The notes under the pieces are model-generated. The model was given only the letters and a program-made list of their open reading frames with translations. It was not told where the DNA came from and made no database searches. 64,000 nt of DNA from the NCBI GenBank assembly GCA_020052415.1, contig JAGVPB010000094.1, forward strand, positions 102,881 to 166,880, in the 5' to 3' direction. This document shows, piece after piece, positions 8,053 through 55,591 of the stretch (positions are counted from its first letter, which is position 1; each line of letters opens with the position of its first letter). The stretch is from Bacteroidales bacterium (GTDB taxonomy: Bacteria; Bacteroidota; Bacteroidia; Bacteroidales; JAADJA01). The position numbers were made by a program, and so were the translations under genes.

Positions 8053-8072
8053 AATTCTAAATTATCTTAAAA

Positions 8073-13729: not shown

Positions 13730-13750
13730 ACGATACAGGCTAAGAATTAA

Positions 13751-13778
13751 GCCATCCAATATTGGGTGGCTTTTTTTT
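13751..13778 (+). terminator. rho-independent terminator after the histidine kinase-like gene
   Basis: The hairpin GCCATCCAAT/ATTGGGTGGC is followed directly by T8. Confidence 0.7.
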
Positions 13779-13896
13779 ATTTACCGTTAATCTATTACAA
13801 TTCGAATGGTTGAAAGAAATAATTTCAGGCTATAACAATCTAAAATTCCTGTAAATTTTAATTTGCTTTGCAATAAAAATAAATTAAATATTGCTT

Positions 13897-34967: not shown

Positions 34968-35021
34968 TGGGCTCTTTGTTTCCGTACTAAAATAAGCATC
35001 CAGTTTTATCGTTACTTGTCA

Positions 35022-36179
35022 ATGAAAAGTGGAAACTTGCAATTTTTGATTCTTACAACCTATCTCATTCTAATCTCCCATATATGTATTTCACAGAAGG
35101 AGTATGCTAAAAATCCCCATGTTGATTATAATATTGCTATCAGCGATGACAATTACCATATCAGCTACACTTTTATGGATCATTTCGATAATTTTCAAAC
35201 TTTTGAATTGATATTGCCTGTGGAATTTACCGAAAATGAGATAACAGTTTTCGGGGTTCCGTCATGGCTGTTTAATCCTTACTCAGATACCGAATATAAC
35301 CGACAAATCCGCAACAAGGAACTGAGCAAAGGGCTTTTTAAATTAAGCAAAAATACAATTGAGGTTGATAAAAGCGCAGTACTGAGAAGGTATGCCGAAA
35401 CTTTTTGTAAACCTATTGCCGGCATGATCGTCGAATCGCTTGAGGAATATGGCAGAGACACCCGCCGCGACAGGATTGAACTGGCCATCCGGTTCGTACA
35501 GGACATTCCTTATGGCATACCCCAATATTCTGACAAAGCAAGGCATTACGGAGGAGTAATTCCACCACCGGCGCTTCTGAAAAATGGTTATGGCGATTGT
35601 GATTCAAAAGTTCTGCTTTTTGCCGGTATTCTTATCTATCTCATCCCCGGAAATGAAATTATCTTTCTGAACCAGGCCGATCATGTGCTATCTGCTGTAT
35701 TTGGAGAAAAGGAAGAAGGACTCACCTATGTGAACTTTATGAATAAAAATTACCTGGTCGCTGAAACATCAGGTCCCGGACAAAGAAAACTGGGCGAGAA
35801 GGGTAATTATTTCAGGAATAAATTCACAGCTGAACCACTGGATTTCGACCTACCTGAACCATTGCCTTTTGACCCGGATGCTATTGCTGTCAGGTCTGTT
35901 TCGAATAACAGTGTGGATAAAAATAAAGTGGTGATCAAAAACATGTCGGCCAACTATTTTAAATTTCAGCTAAGCTATGACAACAAGAACTGGCAGGATT
36001 TTAATCTGAAAAATAATGAATCAGGCATTTTTAACCTTACAGAGAAAGATTTCGTAATGCTTAGGATACGGGAAAGATCAAAAGGCTTTGCCGTTTATAA
36101 AATCCTGCCCGGGAACTCTTATTCATTTCACTGGGACAACCATTACGAAAAATGGGAACCGGATTTTAAGGTGTTTTAA
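35022..36179 (+). CDS. secreted hypothetical protein with possible transglutaminase-like cysteine protease core
   Basis: The signal-like N-terminus is LQFLILTTYLILISHICIS. GYGDCDSKVLLFAGIL (Cys), ADHVLSAV (His) and LVAETSG (acidic) have spacing reminiscent of transglutaminase-like folds. Confidence 0.35.
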   Translation: MKSGNLQFLILTTYLILISHICISQKEYAKNPHVDYNIAISDDNYHISYTFMDHFDNFQTFELILPVEFTENEITVFGVPSWLFNPYSDTEYNRQIRNKELSKGLFKLSKNTIEVDKSAVLRRYAETFCKPIAGMIVESLEEYGRDTRRDRIELAIRFVQDIPYGIPQYSDKARHYGGVIPPPALLKNGYGDCDSKVLLFAGILIYLIPGNEIIFLNQADHVLSAVFGEKEEGLTYVNFMNKNYLVAETSGPGQRKLGEKGNYFRNKFTAEPLDFDLPEPLPFDPDAIAVRSVSNNSVDKNKVVIKNMSANYFKFQLSYDNKNWQDFNLKNNESGIFNLTEKDFVMLRIRERSKGFAVYKILPGNSYSFHWDNHYEKWEPDFKVF

Positions 36180-36332: not shown

Positions 36333-37670
36333 ATGAAAATCCTACTCATCAATCCCCCGCGCTCGCCACACAACATGATCCTTCAGTCAGCCCCGGATGA
36401 AGCAAAGTATTTTATCCACAAAAAACTTATTGGCCCGCCGCTTGGATTGCTCACCATTGCCGCTGCCGTCAGGGATTTTGATGTCACCTTGTTCGATACC
36501 AAAGGAGAATATGATCTCATCCCTGATGCTCCGCCTCTCGAACAAATGATCATGGAATTACTTCATAGAATTCAACCCGATATCGTAGGCGTATCAATCA
36601 TTACATCAGAATTATATTTTTCAATTGATATCTTTAAAACAATAAAGAATTATAATCCGGATATTCTTACTGTTGCAGGTGGCCTTCATACCACACTTTG
36701 CCCTGAGGACTTTACCGATCCTTCGGTAGATGTGATCTGTCCGGGCCAGTCTGCCAATACTTTCAGAGCTTTGGTCATAAGAAAATCGCAGAACCTTGAC
36801 CTTCGGGATGTGCCGGGCATTTACGTCAATTCGGACAAAGGATTGTTTGCTACTAAAGCTGTTGAATCCAACTGGGATCCTGCAAATGAAAACTTCCTCA
36901 TGCCCGATCGCAGCCTGCTTGAGCGCTGGCGGCAAACCTACAAAGTAGGAAATGCACCTTCACCGACTACCTATCTTTTCACCTCGCTGGGTTGCCCCTA
37001 CCGCTGCACTTTCTGCTCCATCTGGAAAGAGCATAGAGGACTTTATCACCAGCGCACTGTCGAAAGTGTCATTACAGAGCTCAGGCAGATTGATTACGAC
37101 ATCGTCCGCTTTGCGGATGCCAATACCATTGTCAACATCAGTTTTATCAACCGGCTTTTCGACCGGATAAATGAAGAGGGTATCAAAAAAGAATACATCA
37201 TGGATATCCGCGCCGATACGGCGGTTGATCATCCGCAACTGATCGAAAAACTGGCAAATGCAGGTTTAAAGGTAGTCATTTGCGGCTTCGAATCCTTTCG
37301 CGACAGCGAACTGAAAAAATATAACAAGAAGTCCCTTGCTGACCGCATCCACAAGGCCATTGATATTTTTCACCAAAACGGGATTCTTTTGAGAGGGAAT
37401 TATGTTGTTCCCGGCGACTACACCGAAGATGATTTCAAAGCGCTTGCCGAATATGCAAATTCCCACCGTGTCACCTACGCCGGATACACCATACTTACTC
37501 CTATGCCCGGAACGATTTTGTATGAAGAAATGAAAAGCCAGATCATTGACTACGACCTTTCGAAATATAATTTCTTTAACAGTGTCATTAAAACAACTTT
37601 GCCCCTTGATCAGTTTTACGAAAATGTCGGGAAGCTATGGTTGATAAAGAAAGGAAAGGATGTGATTTAG
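36333..37670 (+). CDS. B12-binding-domain radical SAM protein (class B rSAM family)
   Basis: The N-terminus MKILLINPP...GPPLGLLTIAAAV is typical of the B12-binding-type Rossmann domain of this family. The radical SAM motif is LGCPYRCTFCSIW (CxxxCxxC). Confidence 0.8.
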   Translation: MKILLINPPRSPHNMILQSAPDEAKYFIHKKLIGPPLGLLTIAAAVRDFDVTLFDTKGEYDLIPDAPPLEQMIMELLHRIQPDIVGVSIITSELYFSIDIFKTIKNYNPDILTVAGGLHTTLCPEDFTDPSVDVICPGQSANTFRALVIRKSQNLDLRDVPGIYVNSDKGLFATKAVESNWDPANENFLMPDRSLLERWRQTYKVGNAPSPTTYLFTSLGCPYRCTFCSIWKEHRGLYHQRTVESVITELRQIDYDIVRFADANTIVNISFINRLFDRINEEGIKKEYIMDIRADTAVDHPQLIEKLANAGLKVVICGFESFRDSELKKYNKKSLADRIHKAIDIFHQNGILLRGNYVVPGDYTEDDFKALAEYANSHRVTYAGYTILTPMPGTILYEEMKSQIIDYDLSKYNFFNSVIKTTLPLDQFYENVGKLWLIKKGKDVI

Positions 37671-37760
37671 TTTCAGGTTCAAGGTTTCAGGTTTCAAGTT
37701 TCATCTCGCCGTAGGCGAGACAGGTTTTAGGTTTCTGGTTCAAGATTTCAGGTTCCTGTT
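37671..37760. repeat. heptad tandem repeats (TTTCAGG/TTCAAGG-type) flanking a GC stem-loop at a convergent gene junction
   Basis: The left array reads TTTCAGG TTCAAGG TTTCAGG TTTCAAG TTTCA. The hairpin is TCTCGCC-GTA-GGCGAGA at 37704-37720. The right array reads CAGG TTTTAGG TTTCTGG TTCAAGA TTTCAGG TTCCTG. Confidence 0.8.
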
Positions 37761-37908
37761 TAGTTCCATCTGCCGACTGTTGACTGCTATTCTGTTCAGA
37801 GTTCCGGGTTTTGCGTTCAAAAGTAAAACAATCAAACTGCTGGTCGTTGCCTGATAATTCGTTATTCTTATTTCAATTGTTCTTCATTCGTCATTCGATA
37901 TTCAAGTT

Positions 37909-38817
37909 TCAGACTTCAATAACTTTTCCCAGCTCACTCAACGTAATTATCCGGAAATCCCCTTCGATAAATTTTCCGATCTTATATAAGCTGGTGCCAG
38001 CGCCACATTCAATAAACCTGTTTACTTTTAAATTAAGTATCTTTTCCATGGTTTTCATCCAGTTGATCTGGTGGTTCAGATTAGCAGACAATTCACGGAT
38101 AATCTCCTTTTTTTCGGAGAATGTCCTTTGGTCAATACCCGATACAATCCTGTATCCCGAATCCTTTATCACAACTTCCTTTTCAACGAATTCCATGAAA
38201 TTTCGCGAAGCCTCATCCAGCAATGGTGTGTGGTACGGACAGGTCACATTCATGAGTGAAGTGTGCAATGCTCCTTCAAGTCTGGCAAGTTCAAGTACCT
38301 CCTCTATTTCGCTCCTGATACCTGAAATCATATAAGAATAAATACCGTTGGCGTTGGCAATGGTAACGCCTGATTTATTCGACAACAGCTTCAGTATATC
38401 ATTTCTCTCCAGTCCAACAATGCTTCCCATGCCTGTATCGGTGGTGCGCAGGACTCCTTTGATCAGTTCAAAGGCTTTCCTGATAAGATCGAGGCCTCCG
38501 GCAAAGGATATGGAACCACCACAATATAAAGCAGAATACAGTCCCATACTGTAACTGGAAATGTAATCCGGTGTGACCTCCTTACGCTTCAGAATATCAG
38601 ATACCGCACACCCGAAAATATAACTAATATATTGAGCCTCAAGTTCGTGATCCCTGAAATCATTTTCTTTAATATAAAATTTAGTAAGGCTGAAACCGGT
38701 TTTTAAAGATGCCTCCTTGAGCAAATGGTCAATATCGTCTGAATATTGTCGAAGTAATTCGTGTTCATCACCCTTGTATTCCGAAACAAAGGCTGGGAAA
38801 ATAAATCCGGTGAGCAT
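37909..38817 (-). CDS. FabD-like acyltransferase (malonyl-CoA:ACP transacylase family, divergent)
   Basis: The nucleophile elbow SYSMGLYSALYCGG corresponds to GHSLGEYSAL in FabD. Size is 302 aa and the gene lies directly downstream of the ACP gene. Confidence 0.7.
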   Translation of the reverse strand: MLTGFIFPAFVSEYKGDEHELLRQYSDDIDHLLKEASLKTGFSLTKFYIKENDFRDHELEAQYISYIFGCAVSDILKRKEVTPDYISSYSMGLYSALYCGGSISFAGGLDLIRKAFELIKGVLRTTDTGMGSIVGLERNDILKLLSNKSGVTIANANGIYSYMISGIRSEIEEVLELARLEGALHTSLMNVTCPYHTPLLDEASRNFMEFVEKEVVIKDSGYRIVSGIDQRTFSEKKEIIRELSANLNHQINWMKTMEKILNLKVNRFIECGAGTSLYKIGKFIEGDFRIITLSELGKVIEV

Positions 38818-38844
38818 CTTATCGAACTTTGGGGAAACAGTATT

Positions 38845-39150
38845 TTAATTCGTTAAAAGGATGTCATTGCCTTTTTCGATAATGAGCAATTGCATTTGCA
38901 CCAACTCTCCGATGGTTTCAACCGGATGCCTGACGGTGTATTTACCGATGGTTTTCAATTCAATGCCAAGCTTGTATTTCTTTTTGAAAATCTCGATCAA
39001 TTCCAGAAACATTAGTGAATCGCCATCGAGGTCTTTGATAATATTGGTTTGGTCGTTAATCTCATCAATTTCAACTTCACATTCTTCAGCAAAAAAATTA
39101 TATACCACCTCCTTTACTTCCTTCCGTATTTGTTCTGTAATTTCTGTCAT
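38845..39150 (-). CDS. acyl carrier protein
   Basis: DLDGDSLMFLELIEIF contains the DSL phosphopantetheine attachment motif. The start at the internal ATG 39150 (MTEITEQIRKEV) is preferred over 39189. Confidence 0.8.
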   Translation of the reverse strand: MTEITEQIRKEVKEVVYNFFAEECEVEIDEINDQTNIIKDLDGDSLMFLELIEIFKKKYKLGIELKTIGKYTVRHPVETIGELVQMQLLIIEKGNDILLTN

Positions 39151-39241
39151 ACGTCTAACAAATTCTTTTAAAAACAATGAAAACGACACTGCAAAAGTAG
39201 TTAAATTTCCTTACCGGAATTGATGTAATTTTACTGCCGGA

Positions 39242-40651
39242 ATGGACAGGAAATTAAACATAAAGCTGATTTTGTCAGCAGGAGAAGATGATCCGCTTCG
39301 GCTGAGAGATCCTTTTATGCCGGTTTCACTTGCTATACTTGCATCAGTTGCTCCGGAGCATAATTATCATTTCGTTGATATGTTGTGGGAAGATCATGAA
39401 TTTGATTCTCCTGCCGATCTGGTTGGGATAAGCGTGAGAAATTCAGCTGAAAAAACTGCATTTAATTTGGCAGATGAGTACAGGAAGCGAGGATTAATAG
39501 TAATTATGGGTGGGCCGCAGGTTTCTTCCAATCCTTTTGAATCGTTGAAACATGCAAACGCTGTTGCCATCGGGGAAGGTGAAAAGCTCTGGCCGGTGAT
39601 ACTCGAAGACTTTTTAAAAAACGATTTAAGGGATTTTTATGTTTGTTCTCCCGAAAAGTTTGAAGCCAACGGATATCGCATCTTCCGACTTGAAAGTCTG
39701 CCGGATCTTTCGGGATTACCGGTTGCAAAGCGGGAACTCTACCGTAGAAAATACACCTTTGATATGGTTTTTGCTTCGAGGGGTTGTCCGATCAATTGTG
39801 ATTTTTGTTCTGTTTCAGGATTATTTGGTAAAACTTACCGTCTCAGGCCCGAAGAAGAAGTTATTGATGAAATTAAATCCTTCAGTGGTTATTATTACCT
39901 AATTGATGATACAGTTTTTGGCAGGCCATCAACATATAATTATTACCTATCGCTTTATAATAAAATTTCAAAGCTGAATAAAGTCAGATACTGGGTAGGC
40001 CAGGCCAACCTTGACGCCGCATCAGACGAAAGAGGTCAGCAGGTAATCGGAAAGGCAGTGAAAGCAGGTTTGATCTATCTCGCCATGGGCATGGAGTCCT
40101 TAAACCGTGAAGTTTTGAAAAAGAGTGGCAGCATCTCAAAAATGGGTATAAAAAAGGATGAGGATGTTATTGAAAAAATGAAAGCGAACATCCGTTTTAT
40201 TCAGAACCAGGGAATCCTGATTTCAGGTTGGTTTGCCATTGGCTATGAGGATGACAACCCTGAAACCTTCAAACGGACCTATGAATTTTGCCGGGAAATG
40301 AAAATCATGCCTGTGTTTACACCGGTTAAAGCATTTAAGGGAACTGATTTGTACAACCGTCTTTATAGCGAAGGCCGTTTAAGCAATGATGGGATCAATA
40401 TTACCAATGTCCCACATCCACAAATGACAAACGAACAGATACTGCATGCGCTTGAAATGGTAGCTAAAAAGGGATACGGTTTAAAAGAGATCATAAGAAG
40501 GACTGCTTTTTATTGCGGAAAATTAATACGTTGCAGGAATAAACCGCAAGATGTTATCCATAAGACTATTTTTGCACTGATGACACAGATCAGGATGGGA
40601 CAGATAGTGAGAGGGGAAAACAATAGAATGAGAAATAAAATAAGAGTATGA
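39242..40651 (+). CDS. B12-binding-domain radical SAM protein (class B rSAM family), second copy
   Basis: The radical SAM motif is RGCPINCDFCSV (CxxxCxxC). The N-terminal region (PVSLAILASVAPE...VGISV...IVIMGGPQVS) resembles a B12-binding-type domain. Confidence 0.8.
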   Translation: MDRKLNIKLILSAGEDDPLRLRDPFMPVSLAILASVAPEHNYHFVDMLWEDHEFDSPADLVGISVRNSAEKTAFNLADEYRKRGLIVIMGGPQVSSNPFESLKHANAVAIGEGEKLWPVILEDFLKNDLRDFYVCSPEKFEANGYRIFRLESLPDLSGLPVAKRELYRRKYTFDMVFASRGCPINCDFCSVSGLFGKTYRLRPEEEVIDEIKSFSGYYYLIDDTVFGRPSTYNYYLSLYNKISKLNKVRYWVGQANLDAASDERGQQVIGKAVKAGLIYLAMGMESLNREVLKKSGSISKMGIKKDEDVIEKMKANIRFIQNQGILISGWFAIGYEDDNPETFKRTYEFCREMKIMPVFTPVKAFKGTDLYNRLYSEGRLSNDGINITNVPHPQMTNEQILHALEMVAKKGYGLKEIIRRTAFYCGKLIRCRNKPQDVIHKTIFALMTQIRMGQIVRGENNRMRNKIRV

Positions 40652-41058
40652 CTATGTTCGATTTTCGCTTAACGGTCAGGGGCTATGAGTTGGATTCTTA
40701 CGGCCATGTAAATCATGCCGTTTATGTAAATTACCTGGAGCAGGCCCGCTGGGTGATTATCAAGAATGCCGGATTACTTGAAGAGTTTCAAAAGACAGGC
40801 ATTAAGATAGTTGTCGTCAAGTTAAACGTAAGATACATGAGGGAAATCGGTTTGCTGGATGAAATTTTGGTTCAAACGCGGATCAAGAAGGAATCACCTT
40901 ATCTCGTTTTCTATCATTTTATAAAAGAGGCAAATAAAAACCTTCTGATGGCAAGGGCCGTTGTTAAAACCATACTTCTCGGAAAAGAAAAAAAACCGCT
41001 CGATATTCCTGATGAGATGATTCAAAAATTAGAACTTTACCGTCATGGCAATGACTGA
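40648..41058 (+). CDS. hotdog-fold acyl-CoA/ACP thioesterase (4HBT / YbgC-like)
   Basis: VRGYELDSYGHVNHAVYVNYLEQARW is present. The ATGA start overlaps the upstream stop. Confidence 0.8.
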   Translation: MTMFDFRLTVRGYELDSYGHVNHAVYVNYLEQARWVIIKNAGLLEEFQKTGIKIVVVKLNVRYMREIGLLDEILVQTRIKKESPYLVFYHFIKEANKNLLMARAVVKTILLGKEKKPLDIPDEMIQKLELYRHGND

Positions 41059-41800
41059 ACAATACATCCATTGGGAGCAGAAGGAAAGTATCGGTATTCT
41101 TACCCTGAACAATCCGCCTGAAAACTATTTGACCGAACCGGAATTTGTTTCACTGGCGCAGTTAAAGGAATGGCTCAGGGATGATGTCCATGGACTTATC
41201 ATTAACGGAGCCGGAAGGCATTTTTCAGCCGGAGCAGATTTCGATAAAATAAGGAAGCAATCGCTGAATGTATCGGAAATGAAGGATTCGCTGTTGAAAG
41301 GCAATGCTCTTGTAAATTTTATTGCCGATCTTGAGTTGCCTGTAGTGGCCGCCATTTCAGGAATCTGTTTTGGCGGAGGGCTTGAAATCGCACTTGCCTG
41401 CGATATCAGGATTTGTACACAAAGAAGCCTGTTTGCCTTTCCAGAGATCAACCTCAACCTGATCCCTGCATTAGGTGGTTTGAAAAGACTGCAAAACCTT
41501 TGCGGACAAAGGAATGCAATGGAATTACTGATGCGCGGTGATTCGTTGAATGCCCCCCTTGCGCTCGAATTAAAGATCATTGACCAGGTTGTTAAAGGGA
41601 AAGATTGCCGGGATATCGCCATTCAATATTTGAATTCGCTCATACAAGACCGTCCAAAGAAAGTGATTCAAATGCTGATGCGGTCATTCCGCAATGCTGA
41701 AAGGCTTGATTTTGAGGAAGCCCAAAAGAAAGATGTGGAAATGTTTTGCGAGCTTGCCCTTGAGGCATCTTTGTCAGGGAAAAATCAAATGTTCAATTAA
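41045..41800 (+). CDS. enoyl-CoA hydratase/isomerase (crotonase) family protein 1
   Basis: Motifs GAGRHFSAGADFD, CFGGGLEIALACDIRI and FAFPEINLNLIPALGG are present. Confidence 0.85.
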   Translation: MAMTEQYIHWEQKESIGILTLNNPPENYLTEPEFVSLAQLKEWLRDDVHGLIINGAGRHFSAGADFDKIRKQSLNVSEMKDSLLKGNALVNFIADLELPVVAAISGICFGGGLEIALACDIRICTQRSLFAFPEINLNLIPALGGLKRLQNLCGQRNAMELLMRGDSLNAPLALELKIIDQVVKGKDCRDIAIQYLNSLIQDRPKKVIQMLMRSFRNAERLDFEEAQKKDVEMFCELALEASLSGKNQMFN

Positions 41801-41823
41801 TCACTATTCAATACCTGATTATT

Positions 41824-42543
41824 TTGGAAAAGTCATCAAGCATAACATCATACAATACGCTCCAATGGATTGAAGAAAATAAAACCGGCTATTTAATTCC
41901 TGACCGGCCACCGGCCAATGCTATGACTGCTGCTTTTTTTGCAGAACTAAATGATTTGAGGATAAATAAAATTTCAGGATCAGAAGTAAAAGCAATCATC
42001 ATTTATGGGAGAGGGAGACATTTTTCATCGGGAGCCGCCTTGGACGAACTGTACGATATGGTTCTGAAAGAAACAATCATAAATACCGAAGGGAAAATCA
42101 TCCGCTATCCCGATTCGATGAAAAATAACCTCGATGCCCTGCAATTTTTTAATAAGTTAAACATCCCGGTAATTGCAGCTATCAACGGTGTTTGTCTTGG
42201 CTCCGGCCTTGAACTTGCATTGCATTGCCATTTCAGGATTTCTGTTCCTAATGCTGTGCTTGGGCTTCCCGAATCTTCATACAACCTCATGCCCGGACTT
42301 GGCGGTGTTCAGCAATTGCTGGCTAACAGAATATCAAAGATGAATGCAATGGATATTATTTTTAAGGGAAATAGTTTCAGTGCAACAGAAGGATTGAATA
42401 TTGGCATCATTGACAGGATAGTCCCGAAAAACAAACTGATGGAAGCGGCGACTTTGCTTGCGGAAATCTCAGCCAATGATTACAGAAAGTATCTAAAACC
42501 AGATTATTTACATAGGTTTGATGAGCAATTCACAGAAAATTAA
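41824..42543 (+). CDS. enoyl-CoA hydratase/isomerase (crotonase) family protein 2
   Basis: Motifs GRGRHFSSGAALDE, CLGSGLELALHCHFRI and LGLPESSYNLMPGLGG are present. The start is TTG. Confidence 0.8.
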   Translation: MEKSSSITSYNTLQWIEENKTGYLIPDRPPANAMTAAFFAELNDLRINKISGSEVKAIIIYGRGRHFSSGAALDELYDMVLKETIINTEGKIIRYPDSMKNNLDALQFFNKLNIPVIAAINGVCLGSGLELALHCHFRISVPNAVLGLPESSYNLMPGLGGVQQLLANRISKMNAMDIIFKGNSFSATEGLNIGIIDRIVPKNKLMEAATLLAEISANDYRKYLKPDYLHRFDEQFTEN

Positions 42544-42552
42544 TCTGCAAAC

Positions 42553-43701
42553 ATGGTGAACGAAGTTGAAACAGGGATCAGGGTAAAAGTTTCCGGGACA
42601 GGTTCTTATCTTCCGGGAAAGGCGATCACGATTGACGAGGTTGATCATTACCTGGGAAAGCTCGATCATGCTCCTCTGAAGATAAGGAAATGGCTCGAAA
42701 GGATGAAGGAATTGATGAAGGAAATACTTGAAGTAGAGCATTATTATTTTGCAATTGATCCTGTTACCCGGCAGTTCACTGAAGACAATATTTCGATGTC
42801 AGTGAAGGCGGCGAAGCTTGCATTGGATTCTGCCGGTCTCAAAAGCGGTGATATTGACCTCATTGTTTACGGGAGCGCGCACCAGGATCAAATGCCCACG
42901 GCATCGGTTCGAATACAGGAAGCACTTGGAATTGAAAAATGCGGTGAGCTTTCTATTCATGCCAATTGTACATCCGCTTATAAAGCCCTTCTGACTGCCT
43001 TTGATATGCTTCGTCTTGGCCGGTATAAACGTGCATTGGTTTTGTCATCAGGCATGTCGTCATCCGAACTGAGGGCCGAATATTACAACCAGCCATTGAT
43101 AAAAAAAGAGGAAGTATTTCTCCGGTACTTTTTGAGTGATGGCGCCGGTGCCCTGGTTCTTGAGGCCAATCCTGAAAACAGGGAAGGATTGTTTATCGAA
43201 AATGTGATGATGGAATCGGTCGGTGGTAAAAAACCGGCAGCCATGCTCAACCGCCGTCCTGCCTACTGGATGAATCCCAGGGATGAATTTGAAGGGGGTT
43301 ATCACCACCTGTCGCAAATGTTCAACGAACAGCTCCGGCTGCATTTTTTTAATGATGATGGCTCTGTGTTTTACAAAGGACTGAAGAAAATGATTGATGC
43401 TTACAACATTCAGGTTGAGAAAATCAGGTTCTTCCAGGTTAACTTTCCTTCGAAGCATATTTCGGAGCTGGTGATGGAGGAGTGTGAACTTCTTAGAATA
43501 CCCAAAAGCAAACTTTACTCAAAAATGAGCACCATGGGGTACCTCGGGCCGCCAATGGTTTTTGTTTGCCTCGACCGAATCCTGAAGGAAGAAAAACTCG
43601 AAGGAAACGATATAATACTTAGCTTTGTTACAGAAGTCAGCAAATTTATGCAGGCCGGATTCACGCTACAGTGGCATACTGCCGAACTTACAGGGGCATG
43701 A
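42553..43701 (+). CDS. KASIII (FabH)-like thiolase-fold protein; Cys retained, His/Asn positions apparently substituted
   Basis: The active-site Cys context is HANCTSAYKAL. By hand alignment to E. coli FabH, HQAN corresponds to FQVN and HGNTSAAS corresponds to MGYLGPPM. Confidence 0.7.
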   Translation: MVNEVETGIRVKVSGTGSYLPGKAITIDEVDHYLGKLDHAPLKIRKWLERMKELMKEILEVEHYYFAIDPVTRQFTEDNISMSVKAAKLALDSAGLKSGDIDLIVYGSAHQDQMPTASVRIQEALGIEKCGELSIHANCTSAYKALLTAFDMLRLGRYKRALVLSSGMSSSELRAEYYNQPLIKKEEVFLRYFLSDGAGALVLEANPENREGLFIENVMMESVGGKKPAAMLNRRPAYWMNPRDEFEGGYHHLSQMFNEQLRLHFFNDDGSVFYKGLKKMIDAYNIQVEKIRFFQVNFPSKHISELVMEECELLRIPKSKLYSKMSTMGYLGPPMVFVCLDRILKEEKLEGNDIILSFVTEVSKFMQAGFTLQWHTAELTGA

Positions 43702-44723
43702 TAAACAGGATCGGGATCATCGGTTGCGGTAAAATGGGAACAGATTTATTTAACTTTCTGAACAACTTTCCTTTTTGCATTACCATGATCGGCAAATATC
43801 CTGAAAGTGTTGGCAATATTAAAAAAGCCTGGCTTCGAAAGCTGAACAGGTCACTTGTTTTAGGAATAACAGATGAAGATTCCCTGAAAGAGAAGGCCAA
43901 ACAGGTAAAATTCAGCTTTGATTTGAATGATCTTTCAGAAACCGACCTCGTGATTGAAAGCATAACAGAGGACCAAAAGTTAAAATCGGAATTATTTAAG
44001 GAACTTGATCATATCCTCCCGCCTGAAACAATTTTTACAACCAATACTTCCTCTATTCCGTTATCCATGCTTGTACCATCGGTCAGAAGAAGTGCGGTAT
44101 TTCTCGGATTACATTTCTTTTATCCGGTGGCCATGAAAAACATTGTTGAGATAAATACAACAGGCAACGTGAATCAACACACGCTTAACTTAGTTACTGA
44201 ATTCTTGAATAAAACCGACAGGTTCTTTATTGCCCTTACCAAAGAAAACCATTTTCTGACCAACCGCCTTTTCCTCAAGTTGCAGGCTGGTGCTTTTAAT
44301 ATTCACAAAGAGGAAAATACTTCCATTGAATGGCTGGATAAACTGGTAAGTGAAACTCTTTTCCCGGCCGGGATTTTTCGTTTCTTCGATCAGGTTGGCA
44401 ACGATATCATGTACACATCGGTTAAAAATTATATTGCAAATTATCCCGACCGTAGTTTTTATGAACCCTTGTTGGCCGCGCTGAAAGAAAAGACAGATCA
44501 AAACTTCCTGGGTGTGAAATCCGGGAAAGGATTCTACGATTATACCGGCCACACAGGCACGTCGGCATCCCTTGTTTTATCGGATATATCAGCCGGAAAG
44601 CAAAAGGAGATCAGCCAAAAACTTTTAAATTATTATCTAGAACCTATCGAAAATGCACTTCTGCAGAAAATCTGTTCCCGAAGTGAAATGGAACACATTG
44701 TAAAAGAATATACCGGTTTTTAA
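43698..44723 (+). CDS. 3-hydroxyacyl-CoA dehydrogenase family protein (NAD-binding)
   Basis: IGIIGCGKMGTD is the Rossmann motif and HFFYPVAMKNIVEI is the HADH catalytic His context. The start at ATG 43698 forms an ATGA overlap with the upstream stop. Confidence 0.8.
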   Translation: MINRIGIIGCGKMGTDLFNFLNNFPFCITMIGKYPESVGNIKKAWLRKLNRSLVLGITDEDSLKEKAKQVKFSFDLNDLSETDLVIESITEDQKLKSELFKELDHILPPETIFTTNTSSIPLSMLVPSVRRSAVFLGLHFFYPVAMKNIVEINTTGNVNQHTLNLVTEFLNKTDRFFIALTKENHFLTNRLFLKLQAGAFNIHKEENTSIEWLDKLVSETLFPAGIFRFFDQVGNDIMYTSVKNYIANYPDRSFYEPLLAALKEKTDQNFLGVKSGKGFYDYTGHTGTSASLVLSDISAGKQKEISQKLLNYYLEPIENALLQKICSRSEMEHIVKEYTGF

Positions 44724-44813
44724 AATTATTTATAATATTGCGGCCTGATTTACTTTTAAAAGAAACAAATTACCGGATTGACTGTTAATCCTGCTTTCGA
44801 ATCTGCTGACTGA

Positions 44814-46034
44814 ATGAACAACAAAGTACTGATCACCGGCCTCAATGTTATTTCCTCTCTCGGGCTTAATTTGCAAAGCAACTGGGAGAATGTACTCAGG
44901 GGTAAAAGCGGGATTAAAAGAATTACCCTCTTCGACCCTTCCGGTTTACAGACTCAGATCGCGGCGCAGGTGCCGGATGAATTTGAAGAATATGCCGCCC
45001 GTAAGGTCAGGAAAAGGCTTGCCCGCCAGATGACCCGTGTAACAAAGATGTGTTACCTGTGCGCTCTCGATGCCGTCGAAAACAGCGGGATTAACTTTGA
45101 GAATTTCGATAAATCACGATGTGCAGTCATACTTGGTGTTGTCAATACCGGCAATTCGAGTGTGGAAAAGGATACCGACGCCAAGAACCGCATCATCAAA
45201 GGCATGAACAACGCCATGTCGGCATGGATTTCTATAGAATATGGGCTTACCGGCCCGAATTACACGGTGGCTACCGCCTGTTCAAGTTCCGCTTATGCCA
45301 TTGGCCTGGGCTATGACCTGATCAAGAGCGGACAGGCAGATATAGTGATCACCGGCGGCGCCGATTCCATCATCAATCCTGAAGAAATCTCAGGATTTAA
45401 TGAGCTTTTTGCCTTGTCAATCGAAAATGATCCTCCCGAAAAAGCAAGCAAGCCTTTCTCGAAAAACCGCGATGGATTTGTGATCGGTGAAGGAGCCGGA
45501 ATCATGATCCTCGAATCGGAAGTTTCAGCAAAAGCAAGACATGCTCAAGTTTATGCGGAAGTCGCCGGATATTCATTCACCAATGAGGCTTATAGCATCA
45601 TGGCTCCCATGAAAGACGGCGAAGGCATGGCCCATACAATAGAACTCGCGATTAAGAATTCCGGCATAAATAAAGCGGAAGTGGATTATATCAATGCTCA
45701 TGGCACAGCCACTACATTGAACGACAAGTATGAGACTTTGGCCATTAAAAAAGTTTTTGGCGACAGGGCTTACCATATTCCCGTTTCGTCAAGCAAATCC
45801 ATGATCGGCCATACGGTTGGCGCTGCCGGCGTCATAGAGGGAGCGATATCAGTTTTAAGCGTTCTTTACAATAAGCTGCCTCCTACCATCAATCTGGATG
45901 AACCTGACCCCGAACTCGATCTCGATTATGTCCCCAACCATTCCCGTGACCAGAATGTCAGGGTTGCTTTGTCCAATTCCTTTGCTTTTGGAGGGCATAA
46001 TGTGACGCTGGTGTTCAGGAAGGGAAAGGAATAG
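44814..46034 (+). CDS. beta-ketoacyl-ACP synthase II-like (FabF-type KS) with intact Cys-His-His triad
   Basis: The triad contexts are ATACSSSAYAIG (Cys), INAHGTATTLND (His) and SKSMIGHTVGAAG (His). Confidence 0.85.
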   Translation: MNNKVLITGLNVISSLGLNLQSNWENVLRGKSGIKRITLFDPSGLQTQIAAQVPDEFEEYAARKVRKRLARQMTRVTKMCYLCALDAVENSGINFENFDKSRCAVILGVVNTGNSSVEKDTDAKNRIIKGMNNAMSAWISIEYGLTGPNYTVATACSSSAYAIGLGYDLIKSGQADIVITGGADSIINPEEISGFNELFALSIENDPPEKASKPFSKNRDGFVIGEGAGIMILESEVSAKARHAQVYAEVAGYSFTNEAYSIMAPMKDGEGMAHTIELAIKNSGINKAEVDYINAHGTATTLNDKYETLAIKKVFGDRAYHIPVSSSKSMIGHTVGAAGVIEGAISVLSVLYNKLPPTINLDEPDPELDLDYVPNHSRDQNVRVALSNSFAFGGHNVTLVFRKGKE

Positions 46035-46133: not shown

Positions 46134-46547
46134 ATGAAAAGAAAAGCAACTGCGGTTTGGCTGGGATCCGGAAAGGAAGGCAAAGGCCAACTATCAACAC
46201 AAAGCGGTGTTTTAAAACAAGTTCAGTACTCCTACACCTCACGTTTTGAAGAAGGAATCGGAACAAATCCTGAAGAGCTTGTTGCTGCAGCCCATGCCGG
46301 TTGTTTTACAATGAAGCTGAGCTTCAACCTCACTGATGTTGGATTTATCCCTGACCGGCTTGAAACCGGTTGTGAAATAACCTTTGAAGGCGGAATAATA
46401 ACAAGCTCGCATTTGGAGGTGAAGGCTCGGGTAAAGGGCATAACAGAAGAAAAATTTGAAACGGCAGTGAAGGATGCAGAAAAGAACTGCCCTGTCTCAA
46501 AACTGCTCAACACAAAAATTTCCGTTTCCTATAAGCTGAATCAATAG
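46134..46547 (+). CDS. OsmC family peroxiredoxin
   Basis: The 137-aa protein has NPEELVAAAHAGCFTMKL and EKNCPVSK, the two conserved Cys contexts of OsmC. Confidence 0.8.
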   Translation: MKRKATAVWLGSGKEGKGQLSTQSGVLKQVQYSYTSRFEEGIGTNPEELVAAAHAGCFTMKLSFNLTDVGFIPDRLETGCEITFEGGIITSSHLEVKARVKGITEEKFETAVKDAEKNCPVSKLLNTKISVSYKLNQ

Positions 46548-46632: not shown

Positions 46633-49600
46633 TCAATCTGTTAGTACAAGTTTCTGCCTTTGCACCGATACCGCTTTCTGTTCATCTGTTACGATAAGAG
46701 TATAAAGGTAAATCCCGCTTTTCAGTTTGTTACCCTTTCCGTCATTGCCATTCCATATAAAAAATGGAGTGTAGGTTGATTCAGTCACTATTTTCGTGTG
46801 ATAATTCAGGACGATTCTCCCTGCAAGGTCAAATATATCGAGGGTAATGTCGAGCTCATCGCCCGGATTGTTGTGGTCAAAAGAAAAAGTAGTTTGATCC
46901 TTAAAAGGATTTGGAGAATTCTTAACCTGGTTCAAAGCCAGCACAGCATTCTGGTTGATCAAAAATTCAATCGTCTTTTCAGCAGGGTTATTGTAGTTAT
47001 CCCAGGCTTTTAATGTCAGGGTGTGAAGCCCGTCGGGTAAATTATAGAACGGGTAATATATTTTACCGCTTTGGTAGCTGTCAATGTCCTGTACATAATA
47101 TTCACTCAGGTATATTACATTCGAATAATCGTTATCGAGAGTTGCTAAAATTTCGTGACCTATTCCGCCAGCCGAAAGGTTGATACCGCTTAAGTCATTA
47201 ATAAAAGCAAGCATAATAGGATTTTCATGTGTCTGATCGCCCGATACGAAAGTAAGATCGTTCAGAAACAGGTCAATTTGTGGCCCCTCATTATCCGAAA
47301 CTGCATTTGTATTTATTCCTCCAATTATGATCTCATTGTTATAACCCATAGCATCGGCATCATTAGAAAATGAATAGTAGCTGATTTTACCGGAACCATA
47401 CTCATACGCAATGTCCTTAGGCATCATAAAGGTAAACACAAAACTGCCTGCAGTTACGGTGGCTTCACCAGTCCATATCTTTTTATCCTGGCATAAGAAA
47501 GTTATTGGATAGCTGTAGGTATCATTTCCAATGGTATTATAGCGCGTCGGTTTGTCATAAAGTGTAATATAAACTTTACCGTTAAAGTTAGTAATTTTAT
47601 TACCTGCCTCATCAATGATCTCTCCTTCAGCATAAATTAAATCCAGCGCCTGTAAAGTATCTGACGCCATTTGGGTAGATTTATTCAGGATTTTAACAGT
47701 CCTCACATTATATGTTGAGTATGCCATTTTAAGAGCCGGATCACCAACGAGAATAAAATTCCGTGTAGTGAGTTGCCCGGGAGGTTTTGAGTGCTTTATT
47801 ATGTCGCCAAGATACGGATGCTCTCCGTCGGTAAGATTAAAAGCTGCATCCAATACCCGTTGATTGACGGTGAAATTCGATTGTGCATAAGCAAGTCTCG
47901 TGGTTGTAAAAAGTGCAATTCCGCCACCATGAGGATTCAGGAAAACCATTTCTCCTCCGGTGGAAAGCTCTGGCTCGTCGAATCTTGTAAACTCGCAGGT
48001 TGCAGTAATAAACACGGGCATTTTACCAACATTGGTCCAGTCCTGTATGTCATTCGATCCTAATATTCGTTCGTGCGCCCAGCCGGCTTTACCTCCATGT
48101 CCGACATAATTAACGATAAGTGCGCCGTTGTTTACAGCATTGTTGATTGCTTCTGTTACAGCTGGGTAGCGATAACCTGCAGGTGTTTTGACCTGGGGGT
48201 ATGCATCGAGGTAAATTTTTTGTTCATTGTAAAGTTCAGGGATGAATCCTGCTCCGTTGGCAAGGCTGTCAGCTTGTTCGAGGTGAAGATTGCCATCTTC
48301 GTCATCAGCTATAAAGCAGATTTTTGATCTCCAGGTCCCAAAAACGGGTTCGGTGGTTGCAAGGTAAAGATTAATTTTATCAATAGCGGTCTGGGCTTCC
48401 TCAACGGTTTGAACCGGGAATCTTCCGATACCAATGTCTAATTGCCCCACTCCGTCGTTTCCTTCATTTTCATCAAGAAATCCATAAAAATCATCAATAA
48501 CAAAACTCGAAGCCGTGATCCATGATTCTTCGTTTTGAAATGCAGGGATGAAATTGGAATTGTTCTCATACCTGTTTTTCGGATCAAAAGAGCCATCTCC
48601 AAATAAAACGAGAAAGCGTGGTTCATTCCCTTCATATTTGTCATACAGCATTTTCATATAATCACGTATGGCCGTAGGATCCTGTTTCCCTGAAGAAAAT
48701 TCATTATAGATTTCTTTTGTCCCAACCACCTTAATTTCAAAACTGTCTCTTGAAACATGGAGTGCAGCCAGCTCATTTGCCTGGTCAATAAACAAAGGAT
48801 GAGAAACGATTACCATATCAAAAGGCCCATCGCCATGCAAATCCTGGTTGTCAACCATTTCCACAAACTCCGGTGAGTAATATTCGCTTCCGTCGAAGGC
48901 AACGAATTCGCGAAGTGAATCGGTTTGAACGGTAAATAACAGTTCGCCGGCGTTTGATTCCGGTTCAATTTTAAAAGGTATGATGGGGTTGGTAATGTCC
49001 CAGACCATAAGGCCGGGATTAGAATTGGTAATTGTAAATTCAGAAACAGCGCCATCCAATACCGAAGATAATTGCCTGAACATAAGCTGCCCGTTATCAA
49101 ACTTAAGATTGCTTGAGGCATTTACCATAATGTAATTAAGCCAGGCAATGGAGGAAAGCGTAGATGGCAGATATTCGAATTTCACATTTACATCGGTATT
49201 GCCGGTATAGTAAGTAAGTGTCTTTTTTTTCTTCTGGGCATATTTTGTCGAACTGGGCGAAACAAGTGTCAATATCATGGTATCGTTCAAATCGTTATTT
49301 ACATGTAAGGCCATCAGTTCATTTTCAAAGCTCCTGTTGGCAACTTCGGTCTTTATGATTACAGGATCGCTTGTAACAATATTCGGGAAGTTGAACTGAT
49401 ACTCCCGGTTGTTAATTTCACCAAATACGTCTCCATACCAGACTTTTCCGGATTGGATCAGGTTGATTTCCTCATCCTCAACCACTTGGTAATCGTTATA
49501 TTTTGTTACATAATTAGAGGGGTTTGAGGCAACTGATAATACGGTTTGCAGTCTCTTTCCCGGCTCTGCAGAAATAGTCAGGTAATAGTAATTATGGTCG

Positions 49601-50439: not shown

Positions 50440-50550
50440 ATCAAAAAAAAATTCAACATATAAACATTTATCTTTAGACGGAAATTTACGTCGTTGCGTT
50501 GCGCGGGTTAATTAAAAGACAGTGATTTACAAGATGTTTTCACATCTTTT

Positions 50551-54351: not shown

Positions 54352-54601
54352 AATTTTCAGCCGATATTAAGTATTATTGAAAACTGTAAAAATAAATTAA
54401 TTTTTCCGAATGCTTAATGAAATTATATTTGGCAAAGTATTGATAATAAAAGATTTAAATTTATTTTTACCTAAAAACTAAAACTTGATTAAAAACGTTA
54501 TTAGTGAGTTTATATTGTTTTATAAAAGAATCAGGAAAAAATTGCCGGCACTGAATAATATTGCAACTTTTAAAAGTGTACTTCCGATCAAGGAGTATTT
54601 A

Positions 54602-55591
54602 ATGTTTTGTATAATATTACTGGTGTTGACTGCATATCAAACTAAGGGATTTAGCCAGGATCCCGGATTTTCTCAGTTCTATTCTAATCCCCTCTATCTT
54701 AATCCTGCACTGGCCGGAACAGGAGATTGTTCGAGGGTAATGTTTAATTACAGGAACCAGTGGCCGTCAATATCCGCTAATTTTGTTACCTATAGTGCAT
54801 CGGCTGATCATTATTTCAACGTTCTTTCAGGTGGGCTGGGTGTAATCATCACTTCGGATAACATCGGCAGCAACCTGATGAATACATTAAGGGCTGGAGC
54901 AATATATTCCTATCATCTGAAAATAAGCAATGACATTAGCATGAATGCCGGGTTTGAAGCGACATTTCACCAGCAAAAAATAAATTATGGCGACCTGATA
55001 TTCCGTGATATGATAGATCCGGCGACAGGTACTATTAATCCCGGCAGTACTTCTGAGATACCCATTGACAGGAACTCGGTGATCGCCCCGGATTTTTCGT
55101 CCGGTTTGTTGTTGGGAATCAAAGAGTCGTATTTCATCGGAGTTGCGGTTCATCATCTTACCGAACCCACACTTAATTACTATTCAGGGACGGACCACAA
55201 TTTATTGTACCGTAAATACACCCTTCATGGCGGAGCACGTTACATGCTGAATAAGGGTTACATCAGCGGGAAAAACAGTCCCTGGATCATTTCGCCGAAT
55301 TTTCTATATGATTACCAACAAACTGCCCGGCAGTTGAATTTTGGTGTTTATGTTGAAAAATCACCACTTACAGCCGGATTGTGGTACCGGTACGACATTG
55401 ATAATGCTGACGGAATCATTTTGCTGCTGGGAATGAATTATAACAGGTTTAAATTCGGCTATTCCTATGATGTAACTTTATCGCGACTAAAAGGTACAAC
55501 GGGTGGCGCTCATGAAGTTTCGGCGGTATTGTTGGTAAATTGTAATAAAAAAAGAAATAAGCCCGGGGCAATAAAATGTCCGGAATTTTAG
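54602..55591 (+). CDS. T9SS membrane protein, PorP/SprF family
   Basis: The N-terminal signal is followed by QDPGFSQFYSNPLYLNPALAGT, characteristic of the PorP/SprF family. The ATG at 54602 is preferred over the upstream TTG at 54485. Confidence 0.8.
   Translation: MFCIILLVLTAYQTKGFSQDPGFSQFYSNPLYLNPALAGTGDCSRVMFNYRNQWPSISANFVTYSASADHYFNVLSGGLGVIITSDNIGSNLMNTLRAGAIYSYHLKISNDISMNAGFEATFHQQKINYGDLIFRDMIDPATGTINPGSTSEIPIDRNSVIAPDFSSGLLLGIKESYFIGVAVHHLTEPTLNYYSGTDHNLLYRKYTLHGGARYMLNKGYISGKNSPWIISPNFLYDYQQTARQLNFGVYVEKSPLTAGLWYRYDIDNADGIILLLGMNYNRFKFGYSYDVTLSRLKGTTGGAHEVSAVLLVNCNKKRNKPGAIKCPEF

Follow-up and report, generated by a model that had tools for sequence, protein, structure and literature searches.

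An uncharacterised acyl carrier protein-linked gene cluster of Bacteroidales, related to dialkylresorcinol, flexirubin and aryl-polyene systems and equipped with radical SAM enzymes

We analysed a 64-kb stretch of DNA from a Bacteroidales bacterium (GenBank assembly GCA_020052415.1, contig JAGVPB010000094.1, positions 102,881 to 166,880 of the forward strand), called here the window and numbered from its first nucleotide, and within it a cluster of ten genes at 36333-46034. The genes specify two radical S-adenosylmethionine (SAM) enzymes (rSAM1 and rSAM2), an acyltransferase (AT), an acyl carrier protein (ACP), a thioesterase (TE), two crotonases (ECHa and ECHb), a condensing enzyme (KAS3), a 3-hydroxyacyl-thioester dehydrogenase (HCDH) and a ketosynthase (KS), arranged in the order rSAM1> <AT <ACP rSAM2> TE ECH ECH KAS3 HCDH KS (Table 1). 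An earlier reading of the sequence alone, the original prediction, had proposed an orphan ACP-dependent cluster making a lipid or polyketide. All ten genes were reproduced at their coordinates in a six-frame list of open reading frames (ORFs), and look-ups of exact sequences found that public annotations call the same genes, among them the ACP at 101 aa from 39150 and HCDH at 341 aa from 43698; for ECHb the exact 239-aa translation is missing from the public records, where a different start must have been picked. Together with Pfam matches these results confirm the gene and domain content originally described. Coordinates and sequence likewise bear out its details of packing, ATGA overlaps at 40648 (rSAM2/TE) and 43698 (KAS3/HCDH) and a 14-nt overlap at 41045 (TE/ECHa), and the CxxxCxxC motif it had noted is present in the translations of both radical SAM enzymes, as CPYRCTFC and CPINCDFC.

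Table 1. Genes and spacers of the cluster (positions in the window)
Feature	Position	Strand	Description
rSAM1	36333-37670	+	445 aa; class-B (cobalamin-domain) radical SAM enzyme; CPYRCTFC
Convergent spacer	37669-37770	.	between rSAM1 and AT; GTTTCAG run and hairpin; possible bidirectional terminator
AT	37909-38817	-	302 aa; acyltransferase, FabD fold, non-malonyl signature
ACP	38845-39150	-	101 aa; dedicated acyl carrier protein; DSL motif
Divergent spacer	39151-39241	.	between ACP-AT pair and rSAM2 operon; presumed promoter region, judged by gene arrangement
rSAM2	39242-40651	+	469 aa; first operon gene; class-B architecture, DUF4070 tail; CPINCDFC
TE	40648-41058	+	136 aa; hot-dog thioesterase (YbgC/FadM-like)
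ECHa	41045-41800	+	251 aa; crotonase
ECHb	41824-42543	+	239 aa; crotonase; TTG start as listed, true start uncertain
KAS3	42553-43701	+	382 aa; signature enzyme; Cys-only remote DarB/StlD relative
HCDH	43698-44723	+	341 aa; 3-hydroxyacyl-thioester dehydrogenase (Hbd-like)
KS	44814-46034	+	406 aa; FabF-type elongating ketosynthase

KAS3 is the signature protein of the cluster and among its most conserved products. It belongs to Pfam ACP_syn_III, and its best NCBIfam matches are the StlD/DarB family (123 bits; NF005293, cut-off 450), DarB (94 bits; NF053539, cut-off 550) and FabH (79 bits). In length (about 380 aa, longer than FabH) and in fold it matches StlD and DarB: StlD is the only solved chain with which its sequence aligns from end to end, and it aligns over its full length (23% identity, E 2e-23) with the bona fide DarB of a related locus, L043, a protein that itself scores 559 and 586 bits on NF005293 and NF053539 (cut-offs 450 and 550). 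When the AlphaFold model of KAS3 (pLDDT 77, with low confidence in the insertion regions) was compared with solved structures by Foldseek, ranks 1-6 were all StlD (E 1e-28 to 3e-26, TM 0.73-0.80), ahead of FabH, the tetronate-forming AbyA1, the pyrone-forming CorB/MxnB, and OleA. Cys139 is kept in 101 of 101 orthologues; the His of FabH, StlD and DarB is replaced by Asn297 and their Asn by Tyr330, each in 100 of the 101. The catalytic His of StlD, His302, is the residue mutated in PDB 5gk2. Further invariant polar residues of KAS3 are His110, His251, His252, Glu186, Arg191 and Asp196. KAS3 is thus predicted to be an StlD/DarB scaffold carrying a different catalytic set, Cys-Asn-Tyr. Having lost the His/Asn dyad it cannot be a decarboxylating primer of the FabH type, and the role of an NphT7-type acetoacetyl synthase was rejected on the same loss. 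The label 'KASIII-like' given to it originally holds for the family, then, but not in the FabH sense, the closest relatives being DarB and StlD.

KS carries both halves of the Pfam ketoacyl-synt domain, passes NF005589 (439 bits, cut-off 387) and falls short of the FabF model TIGR03150 (449 bits, cut-off 493.75). Its identity across loci is 62-94%, and the Cys/His/His triad that the original prediction had found intact, Cys156/His296/His333, is indeed invariant in 58 orthologues; we predict it to be a working, elongating condensing enzyme. The ACP, on record as 'acyl carrier protein', matches PP-binding at 31.8 bits, its GDSLM motif being invariant in 33 sequences. The match of AT to Pfam Acyl_transf_1 is weak (20 bits, cut-off 32.7), so that its assignment rests on the NCBIfam matches, fabD at 135 bits and mdcH at 142 bits, both below cut-off, and on alignment with the solved FabD and PksC structures. 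Compared with these, GHSxG has become (G/S)YSMG (SYSMG in the window protein) and the malonate-binding Arg117 of FabD is Ala115; Ser90, Ala115 and His196 are invariant in 42 orthologues. AT domains lacking this Arg are associated with monocarboxylic acyl groups of the starter type, or with hydrolase roles, not with malonyl transfer. 'FabD-like', as the enzyme had been called, therefore describes its fold but not its malonate-binding residue.

HCDH matches Pfam 3HCDH_N (123.6 bits) and 3HCDH (51 bits), and its best NCBIfam models are 3-hydroxybutyryl-CoA dehydrogenases. ECHa (ECH_1, 135.8 bits) has as its best solved relative 5z7r, a short-chain enoyl-CoA hydratase, and keeps both catalytic residues, Glu114 and Glu134, in 79 of 80 orthologues; ECHb (ECH_1, 114 bits) is closest among solved proteins to enoyl-CoA hydratase and to 3-hydroxypropionyl- and 3-hydroxybutyryl-CoA dehydratases, with Glu130 and Glu150 conserved in all 82 of its orthologues. 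TE matches 4HBT_2 at 64 bits and TIGR00051 at 61.6 bits (cut-off 68.7), with its N-terminal Asp16 motif conserved. No match to the short-chain dehydrogenase/reductase (SDR), enoyl reductase or FabZ/FabA families was found among the ten cluster products or the scanned window ORFs of at least 200 aa, a scan that left out ORFs 8073-8813 and 12938-13729 and the shorter ORFs outside the cluster. Within that scope the absence of these families, originally noted for the cluster, is borne out, as is the proposal that enzymes of beta-oxidation type would do the reducing and dehydrating: the only candidate ketoreductase and dehydratases in the cluster are of that kind, and an SDR ketoreductase is absent even from the largest related clusters. 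Membership of housekeeping type II fatty acid synthesis (FAS II), which the original prediction had also denied, is contradicted by the change of Arg117 to Ala115 in AT, by the lack of FabG, FabZ and FabI, and by the sub-threshold score of KS on TIGR03150.

Both radical SAM enzymes are remote from curated families, scoring 64-135 bits on HpnR, BchE and HpnJ against cut-offs of 480-650, and both have as closest solved relative by sequence 9CCB, the methyl-coenzyme M reductase (MCR) glutamine C-methyltransferase. Their cysteine motifs are conserved in orthologues. rSAM1 is above threshold for both B12-binding (60.8 bits, cut-off 32.1) and Radical_SAM (71.4 bits, cut-off 29.5), with HpnR (135 bits) and BchE (123 bits) its best, though far sub-threshold, NCBIfam matches; orthologues share 58-94% identity with it. 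rSAM2 matches Radical_SAM at 40.8 bits, above the same cut-off, and DUF4070 at 24.6 bits. Its AF2 model (pLDDT 87.9) has class-B architecture, and Foldseek matched it to AprD4, MgmA/QCMT, OxsB, TsrM, CysS and TokK; the last two, matched at E 5e-14 to 3e-12 with identity of 18% or less, are solved class-B methylases crystallised with pantetheinylated ligands. As its B12-binding match in Pfam is sub-threshold, the class-B architecture of rSAM2 rests on fold comparison only; cobalamin dependence is likely, although AprD4, its top match, presumably does not use cobalamin. Of the two B12-binding radical SAM enzymes originally claimed, rSAM1 thus has the domain and rSAM2 is a candidate. Among the original assignments, those needing correction were B12-binding in rSAM2 and the acyltransferase family of AT.

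To follow the gene set beyond the window, an alignment of rSAM2 homologues was scanned against one genome per species, yielding 78 loci, and an alignment of KAS3 against metagenome contigs, from which we counted the 24 loci flanked on each side by 7-8 kb or more; gene content of the relatives was mapped by tblastn with the ten window proteins. The ten genes occur in identical order and orientation in five Bacteroidales bins (L001, L006, L008, L024 and L076) at 40-87% protein identity, and two further loci (L009 and L068) have the window order with an extra radical SAM gene inserted between KAS3 and HCDH. The set lacks an adjacent rSAM1 in bins of Marinilabiliales, Chlorobiota and Marinimicrobia, and is found rearranged in bins of Chlorobiota, Marinimicrobia, Spirochaetota, Myxococcota and Fibrobacterota. 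In all, the 78 loci span Bacteroidales, Rikenellaceae, Marinilabiliales, Prolixibacteraceae, Chlorobiota, Neomarinimicrobiota, Spirochaetota/Leptospirales, Myxococcota and Fibrobacterota, and six or more phylum-level groups have the core, well past anything that chance grouping would give. Conservation as a block in related genomes, a feature by which the original prediction was to be judged, was found both as the identical layout in independent Bacteroidales bins and as the core in several phyla.

Counts in the 24 well-flanked, KAS3-selected loci (TE 23, ECHa 24, ECHb 23, HCDH 24, KS 22) identify the operon TE-ECH-ECH-KAS3-HCDH-KS as the invariant heart of the cluster. ACP with AT was present in 18 of these loci, rSAM1 in 15 and any B12-type radical SAM enzyme in 16; rSAM1 accompanies ACP and AT in 15 of the 18. 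ACP, AT and rSAM1 thus form a frequent second module, and the rSAM2 orthologue is specific to the window-type layout. Identity across phyla is high for KAS3 (65-84%), KS (62-84%), ACP (61-79%) and rSAM1 (58-87%), and mostly 30-60% for the crotonases, HCDH, TE and AT. A search for KAS3 itself returned about 1,275 representatives (after clustering at 90% identity) at E <= 1e-50. In a search for a cultured carrier, the titles of the 78 genome-scan loci were found to be, without exception, those of metagenome bins or uncultured isolates, and in three protein searches the named organisms among the 120 matches listed for each are metagenome-assembled genomes or rank-level placeholders, most matches being nameless. 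From the taxa and the radical SAM content, the carriers are probably anaerobic. The full-text literature search found no paper describing this gene set, in keeping with the original view that it is not a characterised cluster.

What surrounds the cluster differs between genomes (proteins exported by the type IX secretion system (T9SS) and C25 peptidases here, ribosomal genes or pyruvate formate-lyase elsewhere), which sets its boundaries at 36333-46034. Two neighbours were rejected as members: hyp387 (35016-36179), conserved only in the near-identical relative L089, and the OsmC-family gene at 46134-46547, conserved only in L089 and once more in L166. The OsmC gene adjoins the cluster here and in L089 and, independently, a cluster of another layout in L166 (5985-6380); its product might protect an oxidation-prone compound, or the adjacency might be coincidence. 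Recent horizontal acquisition was discarded too, there being no compositional signal (GC 0.40-0.44 in the cluster, 0.39-0.41 in the flanks).

Alongside the window type (layout C), three other arrangements of the core were seen. Layout A (L084, L085 and L166) has an O-methyltransferase gene divergent from TE-ECH-PPTase-ECH-KAS3-(~220-aa protein)-HCDH-KS, PPTase being a phosphopantetheinyl transferase, with no radical SAM, ACP or AT gene nearby. The protein of about 220 aa that it encodes between KAS3 and HCDH, at about 11.2-11.9 kb of these loci, is without Pfam match in L085; for L166 a weak match to an outer-membrane beta-barrel is on record, which hints that the product goes to the outer membrane. 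Layout B begins ACP-KS-CLF-KS-CLF (CLF, chain-length factor)-polysaccharide deacetylase-LolA-LolB2-ApeI-like dehydratase-TE-ECH-ECH-KAS3 and continues [B12-type rSAM::HCDH]-haem-binding protein-KS-ACP-AT-<rSAM3-<rSAM1-GT2/DUF2062; its LolB2 passes the NCBIfam flexirubin LolB2 model (86.5 bits, cut-off 60), and its rSAM3 reaches 308 bits on TIGR04072, 'lipid biosynthesis B12-binding/radical SAM protein' (cut-off 360). Layout D comprises supersets such as L120, with O-methyltransferase, CLF, DarG-like, DarH, second ACP and sulfotransferase genes. In the Spirochaetota loci L003/L025-L038, at about 11.4-18.8 kb, a DUF2279 lipoprotein and two trypsin-PDZ proteases are inserted between DarG-like/DarH/ACP2 and the TIGR04072-like radical SAM gene. 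CLF, ApeI-like, LolA/LolB2, deacetylase and GT2 genes are absent from the 64-kb window, as are those for PPTase, O-methyltransferase and sulfotransferase.

The single ORF joining a B12-type radical SAM enzyme to HCDH, 855-867 aa long and placed directly after KAS3, occurs in eight related loci (L110, at 11094-13697, and L125, L128, L132, L137, L141, L143 and L151). Among the window proteins, rSAM2 is closest to its radical SAM half (31% identity, 137 bits). We know of no described fusion of a radical SAM enzyme with a 3-hydroxyacyl-CoA dehydrogenase, and this one ties the radical SAM enzyme to the ketoreduction step.

Several relatives are merged with recognisable Dar systems. In 23 loci a BtrH-like protein passes the NCBIfam DarH model (316-462 bits, cut-off 300). 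The operon of L043 (474-8018) reads HCDH-KS-ACP-PPTase-AT-(303-aa DarA candidate)-DarB-DarG-DarH, its DarB passing the DarB model (586 bits, cut-off 550), and L062 (1334-9682) has darA(candidate)-darB-darG-darH beside an ABC transporter, a second TE and KS genes; in both, the dar set passes the NCBIfam cut-offs and adjoins an rSAM2-TE-ECH-ECH-KAS3 operon, so that true DarB and KAS3 coexist. The original prediction could match the gene content to no flexirubin, dialkylresorcinol or aryl-polyene cluster. That view has to be given up: the best family, sequence and fold matches of KAS3 are DarB and StlD, and relatives fuse the gene set with DarA, DarB, DarG and DarH, with LolB2, with KS-CLF and with an ApeI-like dehydratase. 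The cluster is an uncharacterised variant or offshoot of the dialkylresorcinol/flexirubin/aryl-polyene superfamily. Its description as a dedicated ACP-dependent cluster, on the other hand, is upheld by its own ACP, a KS with intact triad, the PPTase inside the operon in relatives and the lack of FabG, FabZ and FabI: this is a dedicated, conserved, ACP-linked biosynthetic gene set. Its product is probably lipid- or polyketide-like, made from acyl thioesters and associated with the cell envelope.

Of the characterised systems, the dialkylresorcinol (DAR) pathway (DarA-DarB-DarC; StlC-StlD-StlE) offers the most points of contact. DarB and StlD use Michael and Claisen reactions to join a 3-oxoacyl with a 2-enoyl thioester, and the resulting carboxy-cyclohexanedione is aromatised by DarA (PMC6836626); dar clusters can carry their own ACP, KS and BtrH-like protein (PMC3949708). 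Likewise, KAS3 is a full-length DarB/StlD homologue with a dedicated ACP and KS beside it, as darC and darJ are in Azoarcus (PMC3949708); the operon appears to encode the means of making 3-oxoacyl and 2-enoyl thioesters, the substrates of DarB (PMC6836626); and relatives carry DarH and DarG-like proteins, two of them with a whole darABGH set alongside. Unlike DAR systems, however, it has a KAS3 that scores far below the family cut-offs, has Asn297 and Tyr330 for His and Asn and coexists with true DarB in two loci; the window holds no DarA, DarG or DarH; and radical SAM enzymes, HCDH, two crotonases and TE are added.

With aryl-polyene and flexirubin clusters it shares a discrete KS, ACP and hot-dog TE, and related loci add KS-CLF, ApeI-like, LolA, LolB2_flexi, polysaccharide deacetylase and GT2-DUF2062 genes, but the window itself has no CLF, FabG-type ketoreductase, FabZ/ApeI dehydratase or export genes, nor were aryl-starter genes seen in it. 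The canonical flexirubin cluster has reductases and dehydratases of FAS-II type, and a term search of its description found no mention of hydratases or dehydrogenases; HCDH and crotonases, the candidates for reduction and dehydration here, are not listed for it (PMC3992019). The ladderane-type FAS II clusters (Kuenenia/Desulfotalea; TIGR04072) resemble it in combining ACP, a FabF-type enzyme and a class-B radical SAM enzyme in expected anaerobes, and relatives carry a near-threshold TIGR04072-type enzyme (the 308-bit protein above). The window proteins, by contrast, score only 53.8 bits (rSAM2) and 22 bits (rSAM1) against that cut-off of 360, amxFabZ and a phytoene-desaturase-like gene are missing from the cluster, and the terms enoyl-CoA hydratase and 3-hydroxyacyl-CoA dehydrogenase are absent from the comparative study describing those clusters. 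With no TIGR04072 member in the window, and with ECH and HCDH unmentioned in that study, we rejected the ladderane cluster itself as an identification. Unexplained 'ladderane' clusters without known product are widely predicted in non-anammox phyla (PMC9902471).

The CysS/TokK systems resemble the cluster in the fold of the rSAM2 model, in the dedicated ACP that both radical SAM genes adjoin and in the above-threshold B12-binding domain of rSAM1; the low identity of rSAM2 to them (at most 18%) and its top match, AprD4, set it apart. The 3-hydroxy-3-methylglutaryl (HMG) beta-branching cassette (AcpK-PksF-PksG-PksH-PksI) also combines an ACP, a KS, a thiolase-fold enzyme and two crotonases. It was rejected: KAS3 scores 27-30 bits on HMG synthase models (cut-offs 244-360), Cys156 is invariant in KS where the decarboxylating KS of the cassette has Cys changed to Ser, and both crotonases keep the hydratase Glu pair; the cluster moreover has HCDH and TE. 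The Thl-Hbd-Crt set of reverse beta-oxidation is the source of the nearest characterised relatives of HCDH and the crotonases, 3-hydroxybutyryl-CoA dehydrogenase and short-chain crotonases, but neither thiolase nor Bcd/Etf is present here and the genes are embedded with ACP, KS, AT and radical SAM genes. The cluster thus lies outside the known DAR, aryl-polyene, ladderane, HMG beta-branching and housekeeping FAS II types. Functionally it is most like a chain-joining system of DAR type in which beta-oxidation-type enzymes provide the substrates and radical SAM enzymes do additional tailoring.

The reading we favour, with a probability of roughly 40%, is that KS, HCDH and the crotonases make 3-oxo and 2-enoyl ACP intermediates that KAS3 joins and the radical SAM enzymes alkylate. 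From the gene content, conservation and catalytic residues described above we infer the following route. AT, without the malonate-binding Arg, would load a monocarboxylic starter onto the dedicated ACP, and KS would extend it with malonyl-ACP to 3-oxoacyl-ACP; HCDH would reduce part of this pool, which a crotonase would then dehydrate to 2-enoyl-ACP. By these steps the operon would make both kinds of thioester that DarB and StlD condense. KAS3 would take one chain on Cys139 and join two head to head, with a cyclic dione or a similar condensed scaffold as the outcome, and the hot-dog TE would release the product. Both radical SAM enzymes would act on carrier-bound intermediates and modify carbons that are not activated, methylation being most likely: rSAM1 together with AT and ACP, to which we assign it because of their co-occurrence, and rSAM2 at the stage of 3-hydroxy or enoyl intermediates, given that the paralogue closest to it is the one fused to HCDH. 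A methyl-branched lipid, the product originally suggested, is at most a candidate, the closest fold match of rSAM2 being AprD4.

Several observations weigh against this reading. KAS3 fails both curated cut-offs for DarB/StlD membership and, with His and Asn replaced, lacks the Cys-His-Asn active site, so that DarB/StlD chemistry cannot be assumed for it. The idea that it is simply an anaerobic replacement for DarB is weakened by the presence of true DarB in L043 and L062, and this coexistence, with the failed membership, means that its reaction may differ from cyclohexanedione formation. DarG, DarH and DarA (sought with the L043 and L062 candidates) have no tblastn match in the 64-kb window. 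Both crotonases and HCDH resemble CoA-dependent, short-chain enzymes. On the radical SAM side, rSAM2 scores 21.8 bits on B12-binding, below the Pfam cut-off of 32.1, and its top fold match is AprD4, a diol dehydratase with the same two-domain fold that, we presume, does not use cobalamin; layout A, moreover, has an O-methyltransferase and no radical SAM gene, from which it follows that the radical SAM enzymes are tailoring options and not core. A related proposal, that a radical SAM enzyme replaces the DarA aromatase, is weakened by L043, which has a DarA candidate as well as rSAM1 and rSAM2.

A bolder version of the favoured route, which we think unlikely, would have new radical SAM C-C chemistry on carrier-bound 3-hydroxy and 2-enoyl intermediates, combined with Cys-Asn-Tyr joining, lead to new branched or carbocyclic envelope lipids. 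Class-B methylases acting on hydroxyl-bearing carbons are exemplified by Fom3 and GenK. Because of this precedent the radical SAM::HCDH fusion can be imagined to methylate the carbinol carbon of a 3-hydroxyacyl group, dehydration then giving a beta-methyl-enoyl unit; cobalamin-dependent methylation of the carbinol followed by crotonase dehydration is one possibility within this version, and radical ring closure another.

It is rather unlikely that the cluster is an iterative type II synthase without enoyl reduction, in which KS, HCDH and the crotonases cycle on ACP to build a polyene or polyunsaturated chain, KAS3 being only a primer, acyl-transferase or chain-length partner, the radical SAM enzymes methylating or cross-linking and TE releasing the chain. 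The cluster and the scanned window ORFs do lack an enoyl reductase, the elongating triad of KS is intact, and layout B joins the genes to two KS-CLF pairs and to ApeI-like, LolA/LolB2 and GT2-DUF2062 genes in a block that has no SDR ketoreductase and in which HCDH alone could serve as reductase. Type II polyene systems that have been characterised, as far as we know, use a KS-CLF heterodimer, however, and no CLF is encoded in the window; KAS3, without His and Asn, would not decarboxylate malonyl groups in the manner of FabH; and the strongest signal, its extreme conservation and DarB/StlD affinity, is left without a role. Quite unlikely, in our estimate, is a module for precursor supply, with KAS3, HCDH and a crotonase taking the parts of thiolase, Hbd and Crt in making crotonyl or 3-hydroxybutyryl units, or short branched acyl units methylated by radical SAM enzymes, for another pathway to use as starter or enoyl partner. 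Such a need can be named, since for the 5-methyl-resorcinol moiety of flexirubin a DarB-type enzyme would need a crotonyl unit, and class-B radical SAM methylases are known to build branched alkyl groups. HCDH and both crotonases are indeed closest to characterised short-chain Hbd and Crt, HCDH-KS-ACP-PPT-AT lie within the L043 darABGH operon, AT appears not to be malonyl-specific, and CysS and TokK are among the fold matches of rSAM2. Yet no partner pathway lies nearby in the window or in layout A, C4 supply would need neither a FabF-type KS nor a TE, and acetoacetyl formation is unsupported by a KAS3 that has neither the second Cys of thiolases nor the FabH dyad. A catabolic operon, in which radical chemistry would initiate the anaerobic breakdown of a lipid or alkyl-aromatic compound and beta-oxidation follow, is very improbable: the beta-oxidation-type HCDH, two crotonases, thiolase-fold enzyme and thioesterase would suit it, and radical SAM enzymes can activate inert C-H bonds, but an acyl-CoA dehydrogenase, a true thiolase and a CoA ligase or transferase are all missing; the dedicated ACP, the FabF-type KS with its condensing triad, the AT and the operon PPTase of relatives are those of synthesis; and relatives are merged with Dar, aryl-polyene-type, LolA/LolB2 and glycosyltransferase biosynthetic genes.

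The convergent spacer (Table 1) holds about five GTTTCAG heptamers (period 7, 4.9 copies by TRF), then a perfect 7-bp hairpin, TCTCGCC-GTA-GGCGAGA, then degenerate GGTTTCA-like units; a 14-mer motif of the spacer has 8 matches in the window where 0.6 would be expected. These repeats and hairpin form a possible bidirectional terminator. A scan for sigma-70-type promoters, including the spacer 39151-39241, and terminator and Rfam scans gave nothing above chance.

Elsewhere in the window, two paralogous C25 peptidases of the gingipain type lie in tandem within 46633-55591, both about 1,267 aa long and both ending in a T9SS sorting domain; a PorP/SprF gene comes next. L001 also has C25 peptidases right after the cluster. 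At 2065-6956 a Memo-AMMECR1 fusion (2065-3579, minus strand) and a radical SAM protein (5778-6956), make up the parts of an 'AmmeMemoRadiSam' trio, and between them lies a 714-aa protein that carries a spermine/spermidine-synthase domain. The stretch 8001-14000 is AT-rich (GC 0.29-0.30, against 0.37-0.44 over most of the rest) and encodes, on the minus strand at 8806-12132, a TPR-CHAT protein of 1,108 aa, so it could be a foreign island or hold a gene of defence type. A 680-aa fused E1 alpha/beta component of 2-oxoacid dehydrogenase (E1_dh and transketolase domains) lies at 24450-26492, followed by two proteins (439 and 367 aa) without Pfam match.

The ten-gene version in the window is a compact form of a cluster family that bridges the 'resorcinol', 'aryl polyene' and 'ladderane' cluster types and that points to a common, entirely unexplored lipid or pigment chemistry of environmental, probably anoxic, communities. 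It offers an enzyme like DarB and StlD with what appears to be a different catalytic set, Cys-Asn-Tyr, and up to four distinct class-B-type radical SAM paralogues tied to ACP chemistry, rare handles on how such enzymes act on acyl chains. Carbinol methylation followed by dehydration, if it occurs, would be a means of beta-methyl branching independent of HMG synthase; and if the new chemistry exists, its makers would be abundant uncultured anaerobes among the Bacteroidales, Spirochaetota, Myxococcota and Marinimicrobia, which could be a source of orphan sedimentary lipid biomarkers.

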